Of a stretch of DNA of 64,000 bases, positions 349 to 64,000 are shown piece by piece. Where the stretch lies: contig MTND01000026.1 of assembly GCA_002010305.1 (NCBI GenBank), forward strand, positions 78,236 to 142,235. The letters are read 5' to 3'. The stretch comes from Archaeoglobi archaeon JdFR-42. Lineage in GTDB: Archaea; Halobacteriota; Archaeoglobi; Archaeoglobales; JdFR-42. The position numbers and the translations under genes are program-made. Within the stretch, counting starts at the first letter, position 1; the number at the start of each line of letters is the position of its first letter. Under the pieces are notes generated by a model. That model had not been told where the DNA came from and ran no database searches. It saw only the letters and a program-made list of their open reading frames with translations.

Positions 349-3090
349 ATGCTTGAGAAAGAATATCTTGAAATTACCTATTTGAAAGATAATGGTTATG
401 AACGGAAGCTATGTCCTTCGTGTAATAAGTATTTCTGGACGAAAGATACTACTAAAGAATCCTGTGGAGACCCTCCTTGTGAACCTTATTCATTTATAGG
501 TAGTCCTGTTTTTACCAAAAACTTTGATTTATCATCCATGAGAGATGAATTCATTTCCTTTTTTGAGCAAAGGGGTCACGAGAAATTGGACCCCTACCCT
601 GTTGTGGCAAGATGGAGGGACGATATATACCTCACAATTGCATCCATTGCTGACTTCCAGCCTTTTGTAACCTCAGGGGAAGTTCCACCTCCCTCTAACC
701 CCCTAGTAATATCTCAACCCTGTATCAGACTGGATGATCTTGATTCTGTTGGCAAAACCGGAAGGCACCTAACTGTCTTTGAGATGATGGCCCACCACGC
801 TTTCAACAATCCCAAAAAAGAAATCTACTGGAAAAATGAGACTGTGGCATATTGTAAAGAATTTTTGAACAGTCTTGGGGTACACGATGAAGAGATTATA
901 TTTAAAGAGGAGCCTTGGGCTGGTGGTGGAAATGCCGGACCGTGTCTTGAAACTCTCGTTGGGGGACTTGAATTAGCAACCCTTGTGTTCATGAATCTTG
1001 AAACGGCAGCGGATGGTGATATCGAGATTAAAGGGGAAAAATATAGAAAGATGGATAATTACATAGTGGATACTGGTTATGGGCTCGAAAGGTTTGTCTG
1101 GGCCAGTCAGGGCACTCCCACGGTATATGATGCCATATTTCCAGATGTTATTCAGATAATAAAACAAGAAAGTGAAGGCCTAGAAATTCTTTCAACGAAA
1201 GAAGTAGAGAAAGTAGTTGGAGAGAGTTCTAAGCTGGCCGGTATGATGAGCAGTTTAAAGGGAAAAAAGCTCGAAAACTTAAGAATTACTCTGTCCGAAC
1301 GTCTTGGGATGGAAATTTCGGAGCTTCTTGCCATCATAGATCCTATGGAAAAAATGTACGCTCTTGCAGACCACTCCAGATGCCTTCTTTTTATGCTGAA
1401 CGATGGTCTCATACCTTCAAACGCTGGAGCCGGATATCTTGCCCGACTGGTCATTAGACGATCTATAAGGATGGCTGAAGAGATTGGGTTCAAACTTCCT
1501 CTTATTGAATTGTTGAAAGCTCACATGAATGCTCTAAAAGAATTCTCTTTTGAAAAACGTCTTACTTTGATGGATAAAATCCTGAAGTCTGAAGAAGAGA
1601 AATATAGTGTCACCATATCACGAGGTATCAAGATGGTTGAAAGGCTCCTTAAAAAACAGAAAACCATTTCTGAAAATAATCTTGTAGAACTGTATGAATC
1701 CCATGGTCTCCCTCCTGAGGTTGTGAAAAACGTGGCGATGAAAACAGGTGTTGAAATTGAAATTCCAGACACTTTTTATTCAAAACTTGCCCAGCAACAT
1801 ATTAAAGGAGAGAGAGAAGAACAAGAGCTTGATCCTGAATTGATCAAACAGTACCCTCCTACTAGAAAACTGTATTATGAACAACCCTATCAGAAGAGCT
1901 TTGAAGCCATGGTGCTGGGTGTGCGAGGAAATAATATCATTTTGGACAGGACCTTGTTTTATCCAGAAGGCGGAGGTCAGATGTATGATACCGGCTACAT
2001 TCAGAGTGAGCGGGGATCTACCCGAGTAATTGAGGTTCACGAAATGGGAGATATAATCCTTCATAGAGTTGAAGACCCTTCAATGGTCAGTATCGGAGAA
2101 GTTATCAAAGGAGAGATCGACTTTGACAGACGAAAAAGACATATGCAACACCATACAGCCACTCACATAATCCTCTATGCTACAAAAAGAGTTCTGGGTG
2201 ACCATATCTGGCAAGCTGGAGCCCGGAAAGAAGAAGACAAGGCACGACTTGATATCACCCACTACAGGAAACTATCCCGGGAAGAAGTGAGAAAGATTGA
2301 AGAGATCGTCAATGAAATAGTCCGGGCCAACATCAAGGTTGAATGGAAATGGATGGATCGTATTGAAGCTGAAAAAAAATATGGGTTTACTCTCTATCAG
2401 GGTGGAGTACCGCCTGGCAAGCAGATTCGAGTGGTTCAGATCGATAGAGATGTTCAGGCATGTGGTGGCACTCATTGTTCGTATACAGGAGAGGTTGGCG
2501 TGATCAAAATTCTTAGAGCTGATAGGATACAGGACGGAGTGGACAGACTGGAATTTGCGGCTGGTTCTGCTGCCCTGAAACATATTCAGAAAAGAGATGA
2601 AATTCTGGAAGAATCAGCCAAGATACTCAGAGTAGATGTGGAAAAACTTCCAGATACTGTAAAAAGATTTTTTGAAGAATGGAAAGACCAGAAAAAGCAG
2701 ATAGAAAAGATGGTAAATAAGCTTGCCCGCCTCCAAGTAAAAGAACTTATTAAAAGAGCGGAAAAAATAGATAAGATACGACTGGTCACCGAACAATTTT
2801 CAGACATGGATCAGCAAGAGCTTATAAAGATTGGTGAAAAACTAAAAGATGAAAAAAATGTGATTGCAATTTTAATTTCCAATGGGAAATCTCTTAGAGT
2901 CGTTATTTCTGTGAATGACGAGGTGATCCAAAGAGGGATTTATGCTAATACTCTTATCCGAGTGATGTGCAGCACAATCGGTGGAGGTGGGGGGGGTAAG
3001 AGAGATCTGGCCCAGGGTGGTGGAACCAGCCCAGAAAAGGTAGAAGAAGGTATAGAGAAGGTCATCGAATATATTCAGGAGAAGATATGA
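349..3090 (+). CDS. alaS: Alanyl-tRNA synthetase (archaeal type)
   Basis: 913 aa. Editing-domain zinc motifs 'HHTATH' and 'CGGTH' are present, as is the C-terminal DHHA1-like 'GGGGGGKRDLAQGGG'. Confidence 0.97.
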   Translation: MLEKEYLEITYLKDNGYERKLCPSCNKYFWTKDTTKESCGDPPCEPYSFIGSPVFTKNFDLSSMRDEFISFFEQRGHEKLDPYPVVARWRDDIYLTIASIADFQPFVTSGEVPPPSNPLVISQPCIRLDDLDSVGKTGRHLTVFEMMAHHAFNNPKKEIYWKNETVAYCKEFLNSLGVHDEEIIFKEEPWAGGGNAGPCLETLVGGLELATLVFMNLETAADGDIEIKGEKYRKMDNYIVDTGYGLERFVWASQGTPTVYDAIFPDVIQIIKQESEGLEILSTKEVEKVVGESSKLAGMMSSLKGKKLENLRITLSERLGMEISELLAIIDPMEKMYALADHSRCLLFMLNDGLIPSNAGAGYLARLVIRRSIRMAEEIGFKLPLIELLKAHMNALKEFSFEKRLTLMDKILKSEEEKYSVTISRGIKMVERLLKKQKTISENNLVELYESHGLPPEVVKNVAMKTGVEIEIPDTFYSKLAQQHIKGEREEQELDPELIKQYPPTRKLYYEQPYQKSFEAMVLGVRGNNIILDRTLFYPEGGGQMYDTGYIQSERGSTRVIEVHEMGDIILHRVEDPSMVSIGEVIKGEIDFDRRKRHMQHHTATHIILYATKRVLGDHIWQAGARKEEDKARLDITHYRKLSREEVRKIEEIVNEIVRANIKVEWKWMDRIEAEKKYGFTLYQGGVPPGKQIRVVQIDRDVQACGGTHCSYTGEVGVIKILRADRIQDGVDRLEFAAGSAALKHIQKRDEILEESAKILRVDVEKLPDTVKRFFEEWKDQKKQIEKMVNKLARLQVKELIKRAEKIDKIRLVTEQFSDMDQQELIKIGEKLKDEKNVIAILISNGKSLRVVISVNDEVIQRGIYANTLIRVMCSTIGGGGGGKRDLAQGGGTSPEKVEEGIEKVIEYIQEKI

Positions 3091-3842
3091 TTCAGGTTTT
3101 TCCTATAAAAGGTATTCCATTCATTCAGAGGGGGGACGATCTGGGAAAAATACTGGCAGATGTTTTTGAATTCAAAGATGGAGATATACTTGCAGTTTGC
3201 TCTACAGTTGTTTCCAAAGCCGAAGGACGAGTTATTGATCTGAGTTCAATCTCACCTTCACATAAAGCAGTGGAAATCGCCAGAATAGTTAAGAAGGATC
3301 CTAGATTCGTTCAGGCTGTACTTAACGAGAGTGAAGAGATATTGTTAAAAAAACCTTTCCTATTAACCAAAGTTAAGAGTGGAAATATTTGTGTGAACGC
3401 AGGTATAGATGGTTCAAATGTGGATAAAGGCAAAGTGATCCTGCTACCAGAGGACCCTGATGCAAGTGCAGCGGGTATAAGAGACCGCATTCATTTACAT
3501 ACTGGTAAGACAGTAAGCGTTATCATCACAGATACCAATGGTAGGGCTTTTAGAAAAGGGGTAGTGGGAGTGGCCATCGGGTGTGCGGGGATCAAACCTC
3601 TAAAAGACTGGCGTGGAGAGAGAGATATTTTTGGTAATCCTTTGGAAGTGACAATAGAGGCAGTCATAGATGAACTGGCGGGTTTTGCCAATATGATTAT
3701 GGGAGAGGGTGGATGGGGTATTCCGGCTGTTGTAGTTCGGGGTCTTGAAGTGAATAGAGCAGAAAAGAGCATACAAGAGATATATCGGGATGATAAAGAG
3801 GATGTCATTGCCAGAGCATTAAGAGAGGTAAGAGATGTCTGA
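3087..3842 (+). CDS. cofE: Coenzyme F420-0:L-glutamate ligase family protein
   Basis: 251 aa with 'VVSKAEGR', 'NAGIDGSN' and 'ITDTNGRAFRKG', typical of the F420 ligase family. The start overlaps the alaS stop as ATGA. Confidence 0.8.
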   Translation: MIQVFPIKGIPFIQRGDDLGKILADVFEFKDGDILAVCSTVVSKAEGRVIDLSSISPSHKAVEIARIVKKDPRFVQAVLNESEEILLKKPFLLTKVKSGNICVNAGIDGSNVDKGKVILLPEDPDASAAGIRDRIHLHTGKTVSVIITDTNGRAFRKGVVGVAIGCAGIKPLKDWRGERDIFGNPLEVTIEAVIDELAGFANMIMGEGGWGIPAVVVRGLEVNRAEKSIQEIYRDDKEDVIARALREVRDV

Positions 3843-23870: not shown

Positions 23871-24137
23871 GTGAAATTCGTTTCAGCACCATGCAGAACA
23901 AGTGCAGCATACGAGGTGAAACCTGATAAGAATCTCAGACTTATCCTTGATGATGTAGCGAAAAAGCTTTCAAATGAGGGATATATACCGGTAGTGGTAA
24001 CATCTCATATTGCCGTATTCAAGAAAGAGTATGAATTAACTATTTTCCCTTCAGGAAGGATACTTATCAAAAAAATTGAGGAAAAAGAGATAGCAGACAG
24101 GATAGCCAGAGAGATTTATGAGGTGTTATTAGAATGA
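23871..24137 (+). CDS. Small hypothetical protein translationally coupled to the short ThiI
   Basis: 88 aa with a GTG start. Its stop overlaps the downstream ATG as ATGA. No family was recognised. Confidence 0.5.
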   Translation: MKFVSAPCRTSAAYEVKPDKNLRLILDDVAKKLSNEGYIPVVVTSHIAVFKKEYELTIFPSGRILIKKIEEKEIADRIAREIYEVLLE

Positions 24138-24760
24138 AAGTGCTTGTCTTGATATCTGGAGGGATTGATTCTCCGGTCGCAGCGTATCTCATGATTCAAA
24201 AAGGGTTTAAAGTTGAGTATGTCCATTTTGATAACCAGCCCTTTACTGATGAAGTTCCCAGAGAAAAGGCAATCCAGCTTGCCAAACACCTTAAACAGTT
24301 CGGAGGGGGAAATACATTTTATATCATTCATCATGGATTGACGCAAACTGAAATACTTAAAAGCCTTGAACGCAAGTATACCTGCATATTTTGTCGCAGG
24401 TTTATGTACCGGATTGGAGAGAGACTAGCAGAGTTCATTGGAGCTGAGGCTCTTGTTACAGGAGAGAATCTCGGGCAAGTAGCCAGTCAGACCCTTCACA
24501 ATCTTAGAGCTGAGAGTGAAGCCATCCGAATCCCTATTATAAGACCCCTTATAGGCTTTGATAAGCAGGAGATTGTGGATCTAGCAAAAAAAATAGGCAC
24601 TTACGAGATATCCATAATTCGAAGTCTGTGCTGCACTGTCACCCCCAGATATCCAGAGACTCGAGCCATCTTGGATAAAATTAAGAGAGAAGAGGGAAAG
24701 CTGGAAATAAACGATATTATTGATTTAAGACTCAAAGAAATGGAATCACTAGATATATGA
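24134..24760 (+). CDS. thiI: ThiI-like PP-loop ATP pyrophosphatase (tRNA sulfurtransferase catalytic domain only; no THUMP domain)
   Basis: 208 aa with the PP-loop 'SGGIDSPVAA' and the ThiI-specific 'GENLGQVASQTL'. Cys residues occur at 'CIFC' and 'CC'. Confidence 0.85.
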   Translation: MKVLVLISGGIDSPVAAYLMIQKGFKVEYVHFDNQPFTDEVPREKAIQLAKHLKQFGGGNTFYIIHHGLTQTEILKSLERKYTCIFCRRFMYRIGERLAEFIGAEALVTGENLGQVASQTLHNLRAESEAIRIPIIRPLIGFDKQEIVDLAKKIGTYEISIIRSLCCTVTPRYPETRAILDKIKREEGKLEINDIIDLRLKEMESLDI

Positions 24761-49912: not shown

Positions 49913-50944
49913 TCAAATAGAGCCTTCCAGAAGAGCAGATTTTCCATATTCTGTAATTGAATACACCACTCTATCGTCTTTTTTGGTAGCAATAACAAGG
50001 CCCATACTTTCCAGTTCTTTGAGATGCTGGTATATAGCCTGAAAAGAGATTTCCTTTATATGAGACATCCATTTCCATAAGACGTACCCATGAGACGGGT
50101 TTCTATAGAGGTTTCTCAGAATCATAAGCTTGGTTTCTGTAAGAGAGTGTGTGTGAGATTTAAAGCGGCCTGCCACTATACAAACGATTGAATTTCCCTT
50201 TACTTTTCTTGCACCAGCATATGAGGCAGATGCAGAAGCACTGGCTAATATTCCTTCCTTTGCAAGATTCTCCTGGGCTTCAAGGATTTCCTTCTCGTTA
50301 ACATATACTAGCTTAACCATTCCTTTCTCTTGTAGCTGCATTACCTCTTTAAGGAAGTGATTATGTCCAACCAGATAGGATGCGATGCTCGAATCTTTGC
50401 CAGTAGATGATTCTGGCATCACCCCGAAAAACATAGGTGATTTCTTAGCTAGACCCATATTAACCATCTCAATGCTGGCTCTAACACTCATAACTAGGTG
50501 GCTCCCACTCCCTACCGGCAATACAACTGATTCAGGTTCTATCTCTTCAAGAATCTCGTAGGTGGTTGTCTTCTCTCCCACATGCATGTTCAGGTTACGA
50601 AGGAGAGTATCTTCTTCTTCCTTAGCTGTTTTTGCACCCAAAAGTAGAAGAGGTAGATTTGTTTCACTGGTCACAAATTCAATACCAGCTTTAGAACAAT
50701 ATGAAGCAAGAGAGACAATACGATCGTAATCCCAGTTGCACACAATTTTGTTTTTGCCAGTACTCTTAAGATACGATACAAAAAAAGCAGAAAATCTATC
50801 TTCAAAACTTCCTGTAGGATTTATGCGCTCATCCTTGATGAATATACCATTTGAATCCTCATAGAGTGGTGTGCCTCCTTCTCCAAGAGTCAATTGGTAT
50901 TTAAGAGAAGGAAGGAGTTCCCTATATTTCCATATGCCCTTCAC
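49913..50944 (-). CDS. Threonine-synthase-like (fold-type II PLP) domain lacking the catalytic Lys, fused to a PadR-type wHTH; putative transcriptional regulator
   Basis: 343 aa with a GTG start. ThrC-like features are 'WKYRELLP', 'LGEGGTPL', 'NPTGSFEDRF' (E48 where the canonical sequence is SFKDR) and 'PVGSGS'. The C-terminal 'NPSHGYVLWKWM...IYQHLKELESMGLV...YSITEYG' is PadR-like. Confidence 0.8.
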   Translation of the reverse strand: MKGIWKYRELLPSLKYQLTLGEGGTPLYEDSNGIFIKDERINPTGSFEDRFSAFFVSYLKSTGKNKIVCNWDYDRIVSLASYCSKAGIEFVTSETNLPLLLLGAKTAKEEEDTLLRNLNMHVGEKTTTYEILEEIEPESVVLPVGSGSHLVMSVRASIEMVNMGLAKKSPMFFGVMPESSTGKDSSIASYLVGHNHFLKEVMQLQEKGMVKLVYVNEKEILEAQENLAKEGILASASASASYAGARKVKGNSIVCIVAGRFKSHTHSLTETKLMILRNLYRNPSHGYVLWKWMSHIKEISFQAIYQHLKELESMGLVIATKKDDRVVYSITEYGKSALLEGSI

Positions 50945-55395: not shown

Positions 55396-55908
55396 TTAAT
55401 ATTTAAGTTCAAATATCTCAAATTTCTCTTTTCTGGCTCGACATATAGGGCAAATGGGAGGAGGATCAGGTCTCGCACACAAATACCCACATACAGTACA
55501 TCTCCAGACCAGAACCTTTTCATCTCCTTTTATCTCCTTTATTATCTGAGATGAAATATCTCTATTTTTCTTTTTTGTAGATCTCCTTTCAGGAATCGCA
55601 TCGAGCCTCCTCTCACCGCTCACGTATCTTTCATCCACGTACAAAGCACAGTAACACCTTCCATATTCCTCAAGATCTGGATCACGATATTCACACGGAC
55701 ATATTATATCAAAGTCCTCAATTCTGTTGCCTGACGCCAGCCTACATGGGCACGATCTGTATCCATATCGTTTTTCGTTTATGAGTAAACCTTCCAGAAG
55801 CCCCCAGAGGATTTCTCTATCAGGATTCAGAATATATCCTTCTCCATCCGCAATTCCTTTCAATTCATCATACAATTCCTGTATCTCTCTTTCAGGAACT
55901 TTGTCCAT
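55396..55908 (-). CDS. Ferredoxin:thioredoxin-reductase-catalytic-subunit-like domain fused to a rubredoxin-like domain
   Basis: 170 aa. It has the FTRc pattern 'CPCR...CPC...CYC' and a C-terminal 'WRCTVCGY...CPICRA'. Confidence 0.8.
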   Translation of the reverse strand: MDKVPEREIQELYDELKGIADGEGYILNPDREILWGLLEGLLINEKRYGYRSCPCRLASGNRIEDFDIICPCEYRDPDLEEYGRCYCALYVDERYVSGERRLDAIPERRSTKKKNRDISSQIIKEIKGDEKVLVWRCTVCGYLCARPDPPPICPICRARKEKFEIFELKY

Positions 55909-61270: not shown

Positions 61271-61863
61271 ATGGCGATAAAAGTATAAACGTCGTGATGT
61301 GTGGAGTAGGTGGCCAGGGAATAGTCCTTGCATCGAGAATTCTTTCTGAGGTTGCAGTTTCAACTGGAAATCAGGTATACTGCACGGAGAGTCATGGAAT
61401 GGCTCAGAGGGGTGGATCTGTTGTAGCCCATATAAGAATAGGAAGAAGAGTCCACAGTGGGTTGATTCCATTAGGAGAGGGAGATCTTTTAATTGGCTTT
61501 GAGCCAATAGAAGCTGTTCGAAGTCTACCTTATATCAGAGAAGGTGGTAGTGCTGTGATCAATTCATATAAGATCCCCACTGTAATGAAGACCGTACCTT
61601 ATCCTGAAATAGATATGGTGGAAGGTTTCATAAGGGATCATATTAAAAAGGCTTACTTCCTAGATGCCACCTCTCTTGCAAAACCAATCAACCCAAGAAG
61701 TGTAAATATGGTGATGCTTGGAGCGGCCACAAAAATTGCCTTGCCTTTTTCCAAGAAAGAAGTGTTGGATGCCATAAAAAGCAATGTTCACGAGAGATTC
61801 TATAAGTCTAACGTGAGGGCTTTTGAAGCAGGATTTAAAGCGATGGAGGATGTTCTAGAATAG
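61267..61863 (+). CDS. iorB: Indolepyruvate:ferredoxin oxidoreductase beta subunit
   Basis: 198 aa with 'GVGGQGIVLAS' and 'ESHGMAQRGGSV'. It overlaps iorA as ATGA. Confidence 0.9.
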   Translation: MNGDKSINVVMCGVGGQGIVLASRILSEVAVSTGNQVYCTESHGMAQRGGSVVAHIRIGRRVHSGLIPLGEGDLLIGFEPIEAVRSLPYIREGGSAVINSYKIPTVMKTVPYPEIDMVEGFIRDHIKKAYFLDATSLAKPINPRSVNMVMLGAATKIALPFSKKEVLDAIKSNVHERFYKSNVRAFEAGFKAMEDVLE

Positions 61864-61918
61864 CCTCACTCCTGTTATTTTTTAAAAAAAGATTCGAGGA
61901 ATTTCTCGAGAGGAACAC

Positions 61919-62170
61919 TCAAGAAGATTCCTCAAAAGAATTTCCTCCAGCTACAGGCGGAAACATAGCCACTTCATCCCCGTCATGTAAAGTGTGCTCT
62001 ATTTCGGCCTTTTTACCGTTTACCAGAATCAGATGGGCCTCATCCCTCGGTATTTTGAGAATGTTTAAGAGATCCTCTACCTTCACCCCATATTTCAATT
62101 CTACATCCTTTTCTCGACCAAAGCGCCTCAAGGTGGCGAAGAACTTCACCTTCACTTTGATGTTCTTCAT
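61919..62170 (-). CDS. MoaD/ThiS-type ubiquitin-like beta-grasp protein with an internal di-glycine followed by a 7-aa tail
   Basis: 83 aa from 'MKNIKVKVKFFATLR'. It ends 'GDEVAMFPPVAGGNSFEESS'. Confidence 0.78.
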   Translation of the reverse strand: MKNIKVKVKFFATLRRFGREKDVELKYGVKVEDLLNILKIPRDEAHLILVNGKKAEIEHTLHDGDEVAMFPPVAGGNSFEESS

Positions 62171-62171
62171 A

Positions 62172-62432
62172 TCAATCCCTCTTTCTGAAGTACCACTTAT
62201 ACAGCAAGGACATGTTAGTGGGAAATATCCCGACCCTATCTCCATCTTTCAGAGTCCTTCCCGTGCTGGAATATTCCCCGTTTACAAATATGAGTCCTAC
62301 ATCATCCTCATCGATATTTAGATGTGAAAGGAGGGAAAAAATATCCTGGCTCTCTTCTTGTCTAAGGTGGATGACTCCGTTGTCCTTTCCAGCTTTATCT
62401 TTTAACACACCGTACAAATGCACTTCGATCAT
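62172..62432 (-). CDS. Beta-grasp (ThiS/MoaD-like, Ub-Mut7C-like) protein without a C-terminal Gly-Gly
   Basis: 86 aa from 'MIEVHLYGVL' (an alternative ATG is at 62453). 'IFVNGE....L.DGDRVGIFPTNMSLLY' is paralogous to the ORF at 62446..62703. Confidence 0.65.
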   Translation of the reverse strand: MIEVHLYGVLKDKAGKDNGVIHLRQEESQDIFSLLSHLNIDEDDVGLIFVNGEYSSTGRTLKDGDRVGIFPTNMSLLYKWYFRKRD

Positions 62433-62445
62433 AGAATTACTGCCT

Positions 62446-62703
62446 CTATACATATAGCAGGCTCATGTCACGTGGAAATATTCCAACCCTGTCTCCTTTT
62501 CTGACTTTGGAGTCTAGATCACTCAGCTTTCCGTTTATAAATATATTACTGACCTCCTCAGCTTTTATTCCAATGATATCTAGAATGTTTCTAATGGTAC
62601 CCTCGCTCATGTTTAAATTGAGGATGCTTTCTCCATCCGGTCTTTTGTCTGGAGCTACTCTCCTCAGTTTTCCGTAAAGCCGTATTTCTATGTGATTATT
62701 CAT
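62446..62703 (-). CDS. Beta-grasp (ThiS/MoaD-like, Ub-Mut7C-like) protein without a C-terminal Gly-Gly
   Basis: 85 aa from 'MNNHIEIRLYGKL'. It ends 'GDRVGIFPRDMSLLYV'. Its ATG overlaps the aor stop region by 8 nt. Confidence 0.7.
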   Translation of the reverse strand: MNNHIEIRLYGKLRRVAPDKRPDGESILNLNMSEGTIRNILDIIGIKAEEVSNIFINGKLSDLDSKVRKGDRVGIFPRDMSLLYV

Positions 62704-64000
62704 ATTTGTGGACTTTATCGAGTTCCTCATCTGGCACATCAAAAACGGTATTGTGTGGAGGGAGTGGTTCAAATTTCATAAACTCCGGCAATCTGTCGTG
62801 GGCTGAAGTAAATCCTGCCGCCTCATTGAACTTTCGTTCCATCTTCACAATATCCTGTCCCAAGGATACAGCATCATCCACACTCCATTCTGTGCCAAGG
62901 ACGCCATTGCAAGTTTCGACCATTCCTTCAAAACCCTCAGGAATATCAATTATTGCGAAGGCCGTGAACAGACAGTATCCGGTTGAATCTATAAAGGCTG
63001 TGGACGCCTGGAAATTTCTCGATAGTTCGGCCTTGGTGGGTTCGAAGGGATCTGCCTTTCCTCCTACGTTGAGTATCTCTGTTGCTATGGTATACCCAGA
63101 AGTGTGGTCTGCTCCCATGGTAGATGTGGCATAGGTAACGCCTATACCCTTAACAGCTCTTGGTTCATAGGCTGGCATGGCCTGTCCTTTCACAACAGGA
63201 ACTCGGGTTACCCCTAACGCTTTTCCTGTGAAAGCGGCTCCATTACCCAAGATTTTTCCAAGAGCTGTACCTTTGTCTATCTCCTTCAACAACTCAATAG
63301 CTTTTTCCCCATCTCCGAATTCAGCCAGACCCCCTTCCATGGCGACAGCTATAGTATTACCCGCCTCTATGGTATCAAGACCTATGTCATTGCATATCTT
63401 TATCAATTCTCCTGTTACATCAAGGCTATCGATCCCACAGTTGGGTCCAAAAGCCCAGATGGATTCATATTCCTGCACAGAGACAAGCTCCTCACCATTT
63501 TCCTTTGGCCATATGTTTGAACACCGAATTATACACCCGGGATGACAGGGGTGTCCTGTTTTACCTGCACCGCCCCTCTTTTTCACTCCTTCTGCAAGAG
63601 CTTCTCCAGATACTTTTGCAGCCCCTTCAAATCGTCCGCTAGAGAAGTTTCTCGTGGGTAATCCGCCTGCTTCATTCATTATATTGATCAGAACGGCGGT
63701 TCCATAGGAATTCAAAGCTCCACCTAGTTTGGTAACATCGTGGGTCTGAAGAGCCTCAACCAGCTTCTTCTTCCCTTCTTTGAATTTTTCCTTATCAGCC
63801 ATTTTCACTCCTGGTGCCTCTTTCCCATCGACAACAATGAACTTGAGGCCTTTCGAGGCCATCACTGCGCCAAGACCCCCTCTACCGGCATATCTGCTTG
63901 GCCTACCCTCGAGATCATTGAAACACACTCCGGAGTTGGCCATAAGCATTTCAGCCGATTTTCCTACTCCGCATATCCCCACAGCATCTCCAAATTCTCT
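62696..64000 (-). CDS. aor: Tungsten/molybdenum aldehyde:ferredoxin oxidoreductase (AOR family); the N-terminus lies outside the window
   Basis: The frame is open to the window edge (434 codons present). 'YAGRGGLGAVMASKGLKFIVV', 'GHPCHPGCIIRC' and 'GADHTSGY' are typical of AOR-family enzymes. Confidence 0.93.
   Translation of the reverse strand, partial: REFGDAVGICGVGKSAEMLMANSGVCFNDLEGRPSRYAGRGGLGAVMASKGLKFIVVDGKEAPGVKMADKEKFKEGKKKLVEALQTHDVTKLGGALNSYGTAVLINIMNEAGGLPTRNFSSGRFEGAAKVSGEALAEGVKKRGGAGKTGHPCHPGCIIRCSNIWPKENGEELVSVQEYESIWAFGPNCGIDSLDVTGELIKICNDIGLDTIEAGNTIAVAMEGGLAEFGDGEKAIELLKEIDKGTALGKILGNGAAFTGKALGVTRVPVVKGQAMPAYEPRAVKGIGVTYATSTMGADHTSGYTIATEILNVGGKADPFEPTKAELSRNFQASTAFIDSTGYCLFTAFAIIDIPEGFEGMVETCNGVLGTEWSVDDAVSLGQDIVKMERKFNEAAGFTSAHDRLPEFMKFEPLPPHNTVFDVPDEELDKVHKYE

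Follow-up and report, generated by a model that had tools for sequence, protein, structure and literature searches.

The stretch of DNA analysed here, 64,000 nucleotides (nt) of contig MTND01000026.1 from Archaeoglobi archaeon JdFR-42 (positions 78,236 to 142,235; assembly GCA_002010305.1) and hereafter called the window, carries near one end a minus-strand operon in which the gene for a tungsten aldehyde:ferredoxin oxidoreductase (AOR) is followed by three small genes, A, B and C. The 3′ part of aor occupies 62696..64000 and contains Pfam AFOR_C (1.4e-79) together with the end of AFOR_N; the 5′ end lies beyond the window, and the full gene in the source contig encodes 582 amino acids (aa). 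The enzyme is a true AOR, with 9mqx_D (4e-89) and 1aor_A of P. furiosus (4e-80) as its closest solved chains. Gene A (62446..62703, 85 aa) starts within the end of aor, the AOR stop and the A start sharing an 8-nt overlap (ATGAATAA). Gene B (62172..62432, 86 aa) follows after a spacer of 13 nt that contains GAGG, and gene C (61919..62170, 83 aa) follows B after a single nucleotide, with GAGGG just before it. About 30 nt past the C stop lies a run of seven T on the same strand (61884..61890), a possible archaeal transcription terminator of the operon judged from its letters, and the convergent iorB gene ends at 61863. The coupling of three small minus-strand genes to aor, with their lengths and junctions, had been described in a first-pass annotation of this DNA, and the sequence bears it out. 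Gene calls in two independent assemblies of this archaeal genome give identical proteins.

The three proteins differ at their C-termini. A ends in ...GDRVGIFPRDMSLLYV, with the stop directly after FPRDMSLLYV, and its last peptide, DMSLLYV (62449..62469), stands where MoaD has its PVxGG tail. B ends in ...GDRVGIFPTNMSLLYKWYFRKRD (LLYKWYFRKRD) and carries the aromatic motif NMSLLYKWYF (62187..62216), the C-terminal peptide that defines its family. Neither A nor B contains Gly-Gly (GG), as the first-pass annotation had also read. C contains FPPVAGG (...GDEVAMFPPVAGG), with GG at residues 75-76 (codons 61943-61948), and then continues for seven residues, NSFEESS (61922..61942), before its stop. 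The first-pass annotation had called C a classical GG-containing MoaD; the family holds, but the GG is not terminal, and the tail behind it had been missed. The terminal Gly-Gly of MoaD/ThiS carriers is thus absent, as encoded, from A, B and C alike.

Fold, family assignment and selection

A, B and C are beta-grasp proteins of the MoaD/ThiS-like kind, and profiles and predicted structures agree on this point. All three proteins exceed the gathering score of Pfam Ub-Mut7C (PF14451, cut-off 23 bits), with 36.6 bits for A, 25.6 for B and 38.7 for C. Pfam ThiS (PF02597, cut-off 22.5 bits) is passed clearly by C (51.3 bits, 1.7e-13) and marginally by B (24.1), and A fails it (21.4). The NCBIfam model moaD_arch (TIGR01687, cut-off 49.5) accepts C at 51.5 and rejects B at 23, and the SAMP1 profile (NF041918, cut-off 60) scores C below its cut-off at 41.4 and A at 14.7, with no match to B. 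The best solved relative of C is P. furiosus 1vjk (5e-9), and that alignment stops exactly at GG; the MoaD/ThiS profile alignments to C likewise all end at residue 76, the second Gly. For B-type proteins there is no solved structure, the best profile match being 1vjk at E 0.006. NCBIfam has no model for B or for E, a second GG-less family described below, and Pfam has none for E.

An AlphaFold2 model of window A gives a beta-grasp domain with pLDDT 88 and pTM 0.77, whose nearest solved folds are SAMP1, MoaD and TtuB; its C-terminal peptide is modelled with low confidence (pLDDT of about 52). The second protein modelled was a natural fusion of a B and a C homologue (written B~C; 42% identical to window B). 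It contains two beta-grasp domains at pLDDT 84, with the aromatic motif predicted at low confidence, and it matches di-ubiquitin, ISG15, MoaD 6jbz_B, SAMP1 and 1vjk. The relative orientation of the two domains is not confident, with pTM at 0.46.

Comparison of related loci by the Nei-Gojobori method gave dN/dS values of 0.08-0.37 across the three genes: 0.13 for A (L003 vs L029), 0.08-0.37 for B and 0.09-0.24 for C. A, B and C are therefore real genes under purifying selection, and these ratios together with the conservation of the genes lead us to reject pseudogenes and chance open reading frames (ORFs). The first-pass annotation had staked its case on conservation in related genomes and on a predicted beta-grasp fold, and both were found. 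Moreover, the cassette of AOR, A, B and C recurs in unrelated contigs with C-termini that are specific to each position, which is more than chance would give. In these distant cassettes A ends in FP[RK]DMSLLY[VC] directly before the stop, B ends in LLY[KS]WYF plus four residues, and C ends in AGG plus 5-7 unrelated residues.

Linkage to one AOR clade, partner families and fusions

Two surveys, one starting from AOR and the other from B, show how regularly these genes keep company. In the AOR-first survey, an alignment of three AORs retrieved 294 relatives in species-representative genomes, and 83 loci were inspected. The best 80 of the 294 are 59-71% identical to the window enzyme and come from Bathyarchaeia, Chloroflexota, Bacillota, Bipolaricaulota, Thermotogota, Desulfobacterota and Actinomycetota; this degree of identity across such phyla points to lateral spread of one clade. 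A GG-less partner is present in 60 of the 83 loci, 42 with A or B and 18 with E. The order AOR-B-C, including variants with a contig end or a radical SAM gene, accounts for about 30 loci, AOR-A-B-C for 7, AOR-B for 3, and AOR-C-A-B and a contig-cut AOR-A for 1 each; the E-containing arrangements make up the 18, and in the remaining 23, many of them at contig ends, no GG-less partner was found.

The B-first survey used the tail motif [DN]MxLLY[KRS][WQ][YH]F in metagenome contigs. The motif occurs in 598 stretches, 578 of which encode a B relative, and of the 80 best loci 67 extend far enough upstream to be judged. In 66 of these 67 the small genes are closely preceded by the end of an AOR gene in the same orientation, and the one exception (L103) is apparently rearranged. 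The linkage of B to AOR is thus strict. AOR-C-B (24 loci) and AOR-B-C (23 loci) are nearly equal in number, followed by AOR-C-A-B (8), AOR-B (7) and AOR-A-B-C (2). These counts indicate that the recurring unit is a pair, consisting of one GG-less partner and one GG carrier in either order. The survey of AOR neighbourhoods proposed in the first-pass annotation therefore confirms the association with AOR and corrects the view of the triple array as the unit: the core is B plus C, A is an occasional extra duplicate of B, and the A-B-C array of the window is a minority variant.

Among ORFs of at least 90 aa clustered from the 83 loci, the only recurrent families are AOR, the beta-grasp genes and a radical SAM/SPASM gene; MoeB, MoaE, MoaA and pyridine-disulfide oxidoreductase are not among these recurrent neighbours. 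The sole other recurrent neighbour of the AOR clade is thus the radical SAM and SPASM protein, which has an AbrB-like N-terminus and a length of about 337-395 aa. Its gene lies between AOR and C in ten loci (L032, L037, L050, L054, L055, L075, L078, L080, L087 and L088) and upstream of AOR in L094-L097. The idea that B and the radical SAM gene exclude each other was rejected, the latter four loci having the order radical SAM-AOR-B-C. At L092 and L093 a divergent cysteine-desulfurase-like gene (Aminotran_5, 2521-3660) stands beside an operon of AOR, A and a B~C fusion, and may be a source of sulfur at this one kind of locus.

The B family comprises 1,798 clusters at E<=1e-3, whose members are named either 'hypothetical protein' or 'molybdopterin converting factor small subunit'. 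Its C-terminal consensus is DM.LLY[KRS][WQ][YH]F, and M, L, Y and F of this tail are invariant in the 19 aligned proteins. A-type proteins mostly end in [DN]M[SAG][LM]LY[VCIA], one of them (L027) in MAMIIV, and orthologues with the same ending in the same position occur at L003, L005, L010, L011, L033 and L092. Mean identities are 46% between A proteins, 44% between A and B, 50% between B proteins and 26-27% between A or B and C. In several loci the B of the same locus is a nearer relative of A than other B proteins are (52% at L003, 55% at L011 and 62% at L027), a pattern consistent with B having been duplicated locally several times and the copies having then lost the aromatic extension. By these comparisons A would be a recurrent duplicate of B without the aromatic tail. 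In profile-profile comparison B matches C with a probability of 99.6% (E 2e-23) and E with 99.2% (E 1e-19); the three families share the beta-grasp core, and divergence begins after the FP that closes the last strand.

Several relatives of A and B stand apart from AOR or depart from the common tail. Stand-alone GG-less proteins of 102-107 aa, which have about 20 extra residues inserted and finish in FGRDMAALVV, were found in Desulfobacterales and others (P0003-P0023; for example L006 7665-7982, L007 4158-4478 and L008 689-997); they have no AOR next door, varied neighbours and no match in Pfam or NCBIfam. A first homologue search had suggested that A belongs to such a stand-alone family of 105 aa ending in DMAALVV. 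This assignment was rejected because A is no nearer to other A proteins than to B and is often nearest to its own B, and because the 105-aa family shows no linkage to AOR. Another tail variant, M.LIDGG.Y.[RK]Y, is seen in P0068, P0071, P0084, P0092, P0125, P0129, P0137 and P0155. In addition, tandem double beta-grasp proteins of 165-169 aa (P0110, P0113, P0124, P0128 and P0163) combine a B-like first half, with the tail RMSLMFVEI, and a second half without any GG.

E is a second GG-less beta-grasp family of the same AOR clade, with proteins of about 123-130 aa in more than 3,461 clusters. Its tail runs KSMWPFQYRHG, then about 25 residues, then GLHHxY, and SMWPFQYR and GLHH[STA]Y are its invariant parts. 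E is placed either 3′ of C, in loci of the order AOR-radical SAM-C-E, or upstream of AOR; it follows C at L037, L043, L054, L058, L060, L066, L068, L071, L075, L080, L087 and L088, and precedes AOR at L049, L052, L059, L064, L072 and L086. C~E fusions of 200-216 aa are frequent, and the GG of C thereby becomes internal. In eight B~C fusions of 174-181 aa the linker retains the aromatic motif and the protein closes with GG, and in both fusion loci examined the fusion stands directly after AOR or, as at L092, after AOR and an 86-aa A ending in FPRNMSLLYV. In every fusion seen the GG-less protein is joined to C, never to AOR. It is these B~C and C~E fusions that argue most strongly for joint action of the GG-less partner and the carrier.

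The C proteins vary behind their GG. C ends exactly at GG in 64 of 66 proteins of the metagenome set and in about 31 of 41 of the genome set, and in about 10 of these 41 it carries a short tail with no common sequence (FC, SC, E, CLP, QRRVI, ASPELF or NSFEESS). P0289, from a Logan assembly and in the same 90%-identity cluster as window C, has a 17-aa tail, GG-DSFGTPFRATLRIFLKK against GG-NSFEESS, and the difference between the two suggests an indel or frameshift just past GG. Since the tails vary and GG is conserved, the tail is unconstrained. Such a pattern agrees with a propeptide that is cleaved off; in view of the C~E fusions, a role of C that tolerates a blocked end could be compatible with it as well.

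Other genes around the operon complete the picture of the locus. Just past the window end, upstream of the AOR-A-B-C operon, lies a second, longer AOR paralogue (631 aa) with its own 4Fe-4S ferredoxin gene (L001 4953-8167), and a GT2 glycosyltransferase gene stands between this paralogue and the operon. Within the window, a ThiI-family PP-loop ATPase (208 aa, 3e-68; 23871-24760, plus strand) without a recognisable THUMP domain is another sulfur-transfer enzyme, about 37 kb from AOR-A-B-C, and is preceded, with a 4-nt overlap, by an ORF of 88 aa that has no Pfam match. On the minus strand, 49913-50944 encodes a PALP pyridoxal-phosphate-dependent domain apparently fused to a C-terminal PadR-like regulator domain, and 55396-55908 a domain like the catalytic subunit of ferredoxin:thioredoxin reductase fused to a rubredoxin-like domain. 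The archaeal metagenome-assembled genome that supplied the source contig (GCA_003935005.1) also carries a histone gene.

A putative cofactor maturation module and its rivals

We favour, with moderate confidence, the explanation that the AOR operon encodes the enzyme together with its own tungsten-cofactor maturation module. According to this explanation, C would be a MoaD-type sulfur carrier whose short tail is removed first, and the Gly-Gly thus exposed would be adenylated and thiocarboxylated by an E1 of the MoeB/UbaA type encoded elsewhere. In this thiocarboxylated form C would donate sulfur to the AOR tungstopterin. B and A, its duplicate without the tail, would be MoaD paralogues that have lost the capacity for activation; they may bind C, and the conserved aromatic peptide that stands in place of the Gly-Gly tail may dock onto a partner, for which apo-AOR and a cofactor-synthesis enzyme are candidates. 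B and A would thereby direct the delivery of sulfur or cofactor to this AOR. The adjacency of B and C in most loci, in either order, speaks for such a joint role. The beta-grasp folds, the linkage to AOR, the purifying selection, the radical SAM neighbour and the published activity data on UblC and on aorD and aorE, described below, are further points in favour of the module.

Several points weigh against this explanation. C as encoded cannot be adenylated at GG, seven residues following it. E1 (ThiF/MoeB), JAMM, MoaE and MoeA genes are absent from the window by a crude motif scan, and Pfam finds none of them within 10 kb on either side in the source contig, nor in the other loci for which Pfam content was listed; activation and tail removal would hence rest on genes that are not seen here. 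The internal GG of the C~E fusions suggests that a free GG may be dispensable. The aromatic tail is modelled with low confidence and its docking partner is putative. Finally, we know of no purified AOR from this clade, which bears on whether the small proteins are subunits.

A more tentative possibility is that B and A, or E, form with C a two-beta-grasp escort for the tungsten cofactor, that is, a maturation chaperone or insertase specific to AOR. The aromatic tail would then dock on apo-AOR and C would deliver sulfur or pterin, a role like that of the TorD/NarJ-type and XdhC-type chaperones of other molybdo-enzymes, built in this case on a ubiquitin fold. We think it unlikely that A, B and possibly C are instead permanent small structural or regulatory subunits of this AOR clade, engaged for example in channel capping, oligomerisation or electron-partner docking (compare the beta-grasp subunits TmoB or RnfH). 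The start/stop overlap and the spacers of 1-13 nt suggest co-translation at fixed ratios, B is found almost solely directly after AOR, its conserved aromatic tail resembles a docking peptide, and AOR itself is unusually conserved across phyla. In some loci, moreover, AOR and B occur without an adjacent C, so that B does not depend on a carrier gene next to it. However, B and E can take each other's place as partner and the gene order varies, which would be unusual for an obligate subunit, and fusion is always to C and not to AOR. At least 11 loci with more than 1.4 kb of downstream sequence have AOR without B or E, and most of these keep C or the radical SAM gene. The AORs that have been characterised, homodimers or AorABC complexes, contain no beta-grasp subunits, and AorD and AorE are missing from the purified A. 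aromaticum AOR (PMC6365974), although these enzymes belong to other clades.

The B:C or E:C pair might also carry a finished or nearly finished tungstopterin and insert it specifically into AOR, the pterin being held between two beta-grasp domains as in the halves of the AOR N-terminal domain, so that a free GG would be unneeded. That domain is a metallopterin-binding beta-grasp pair with a proposed MoaD-like origin (PMC1949818). The fusion of the pair in both orders, including C~E with its internal GG, the tails on window C and about 10 other C proteins, and the lack of any AOR-specific cofactor chaperone in the literature searched are consistent with this idea. It is nevertheless quite improbable, being purely inferential: no pterin-binding residues were identified, the domain orientation in the fusion model is not confident, and a GG that is nearly invariant in C argues that GG chemistry matters. 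Distinctly improbable as well is a use of C as a SAMP- or ubiquitin-like modifier, conjugated after cleavage of its tail, with A and B as non-conjugatable decoys or adaptors that regulate tagging. C is similar to SAMP1 in its fold and, weakly, in its sequence, a tail behind GG is typical of ubiquitin-type precursors that need JAMM or another protease, and all three ubiquitin-like proteins of T. kodakarensis, including the AOR-adjacent one, form protein conjugates (PMC11323500). On the other hand, C falls under the SAMP1 cut-off and over that of moaD_arch, no E1 or JAMM gene was present in any neighbourhood examined, and strict linkage to a single cofactor enzyme suits cofactor supply better than tagging. 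The roles offered in the first-pass annotation, namely sulfur delivery to the cofactor, chaperone or subunit function and SAMP-like tagging, still appear to be the right set of candidates.

The Ub-Mut7C profile raises one further reading, in which A and B are Mut7-C-type RNA-binding domains or, failing that, decaying and functionless duplicates of C; this is very improbable and in effect refuted. The profile takes its name from the N-terminal domains of Mut7-C RNases, and its beta-grasp core is clearly related to A and B. The first-pass annotation had proposed a search with this family, and A and B do pass it, but the match is generic, given that the profile scores the MoaD-type C as well as A and B and that no Mut7-C RNase is present; the label therefore has no discriminating or functional meaning here. 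Plasmid matches to B are confined to Mut7-C RNase proteins and are weak (39.5% identity over 43 aa). A and B differ from the domains that gave the profile its name in being stand-alone proteins of 85-86 aa, linked to AOR and equipped with a distinct C-terminal motif, and no Mut7-C or PIN domain occurs within them or in any neighbour list examined. Decay is ruled out by the dN/dS values and by the conserved, family-specific tail. RNA binding through a Mut7-C-type domain was accordingly rejected for A and B.

The maturation module that we favour would matter beyond this genome. There is a demand in biocatalysis and gas fermentation for tungsten AORs, which reduce unactivated carboxylic acids, and the heterologous production of AOR is limited by cofactor maturation; we know of no dedicated AOR chaperone. 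The present data define a large, sharply delimited and easily recognised gene family that lies almost always beside one AOR clade and is fused to a carrier in some genomes. B, with roughly 1,800 clusters, and E, a sister type with more than 3,400, thus offer testable candidates for the AOR maturation machinery and a concrete set of accessory genes for co-expression with AOR or for knockout. They also add further examples of ubiquitin-fold proteins that have abandoned Gly-Gly chemistry and stayed in the same pathway, which bears on the evolution of non-conjugated ubiquitin-like adaptor domains from sulfur carriers.

Relation to known systems

Ubiquitin-like precursors or fusions that are processed at GG are known in QbsE/QbsD of Pseudomonas, in the MoaD-MoaE fusion MoaX of Mycobacterium and in the ubiquitin/Rpn11 system of Caldiarchaeum; in such systems the cleaving protease, or cleavage by the protein itself, is known, and a JAMM gene usually lies alongside. 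They share with C a beta-grasp domain with residues past GG and differ in that no protease gene was seen beside C. The structure 6fno is among the matches to the B~C fusion model.

MoaD-family genes beside AOR were reported in 2006 by Iyer, Burroughs and Aravind and in 2010 by Makarova and Koonin, and were read as serving tungsten-cofactor synthesis (PMC1779556, PMC2948915). The association cited in the first-pass annotation is therefore documented in the literature. Like the genes described there, C is a MoaD-family gene that adjoins AOR and is scattered sporadically over archaea and bacteria in the manner of a mobile cluster. The reported neighbourhoods contain GG carriers, often with MoeB, MoaE or MoaA near, whereas the present one has no E1 or MoaE nearby. 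The usual companion here is a GG-less paralogue with a tail of its own (B or E), of which the accessible text of the two papers holds no mention. In the same way, no mention of GG-less ends, conserved aromatic tails or carrier fusions was found in what was accessible of the literature on AOR-linked partners. As far as we found, the AOR-MoaD link is thus known, and the GG-less partner families, their near-obligate linkage and the fusions are undescribed.

In A. aromaticum EbN1, the MoaD-like genes aorD and aorE follow aorABC in one operon; their products are absent from the purified enzyme, and recombinant AOR had a higher specific activity when aorD and aorE were added (PMC6365974, PMC9295118). 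This operon resembles that of the window in that small MoaD-like genes, two in this case, follow the AOR structural genes, and AorD (WP_041646405) and AorE (WP_041646407) might correspond to a pair of C with B or E. The A. aromaticum AOR is a three-subunit, NAD-linked enzyme of another subfamily than the window AOR.

The nearest parallel is found in Thermococcales. Deletion of UblC (TK1065), a MoaD-type protein encoded next to AOR in T. kodakarensis, lowered AOR activity to about 54% and abolished that of FOR in low-sulfur medium, and the radical SAM gene next to AOR in this order may act in cofactor maturation (PMC11323500). The radical SAM/SPASM gene of the window clade resembles this Thermococcales gene (PMC11323500). 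TK1065 is treated as a conventional ubiquitin-like protein with a C-terminal di-glycine, and its locus as described has no gene for a GG-less partner (PMC11323500), whereas window C carries a 7-aa tail and has two GG-less neighbours. As a MoaD-family ubiquitin-like protein encoded next to AOR and a radical SAM gene, UblC is the closest functional analogue of gene C.

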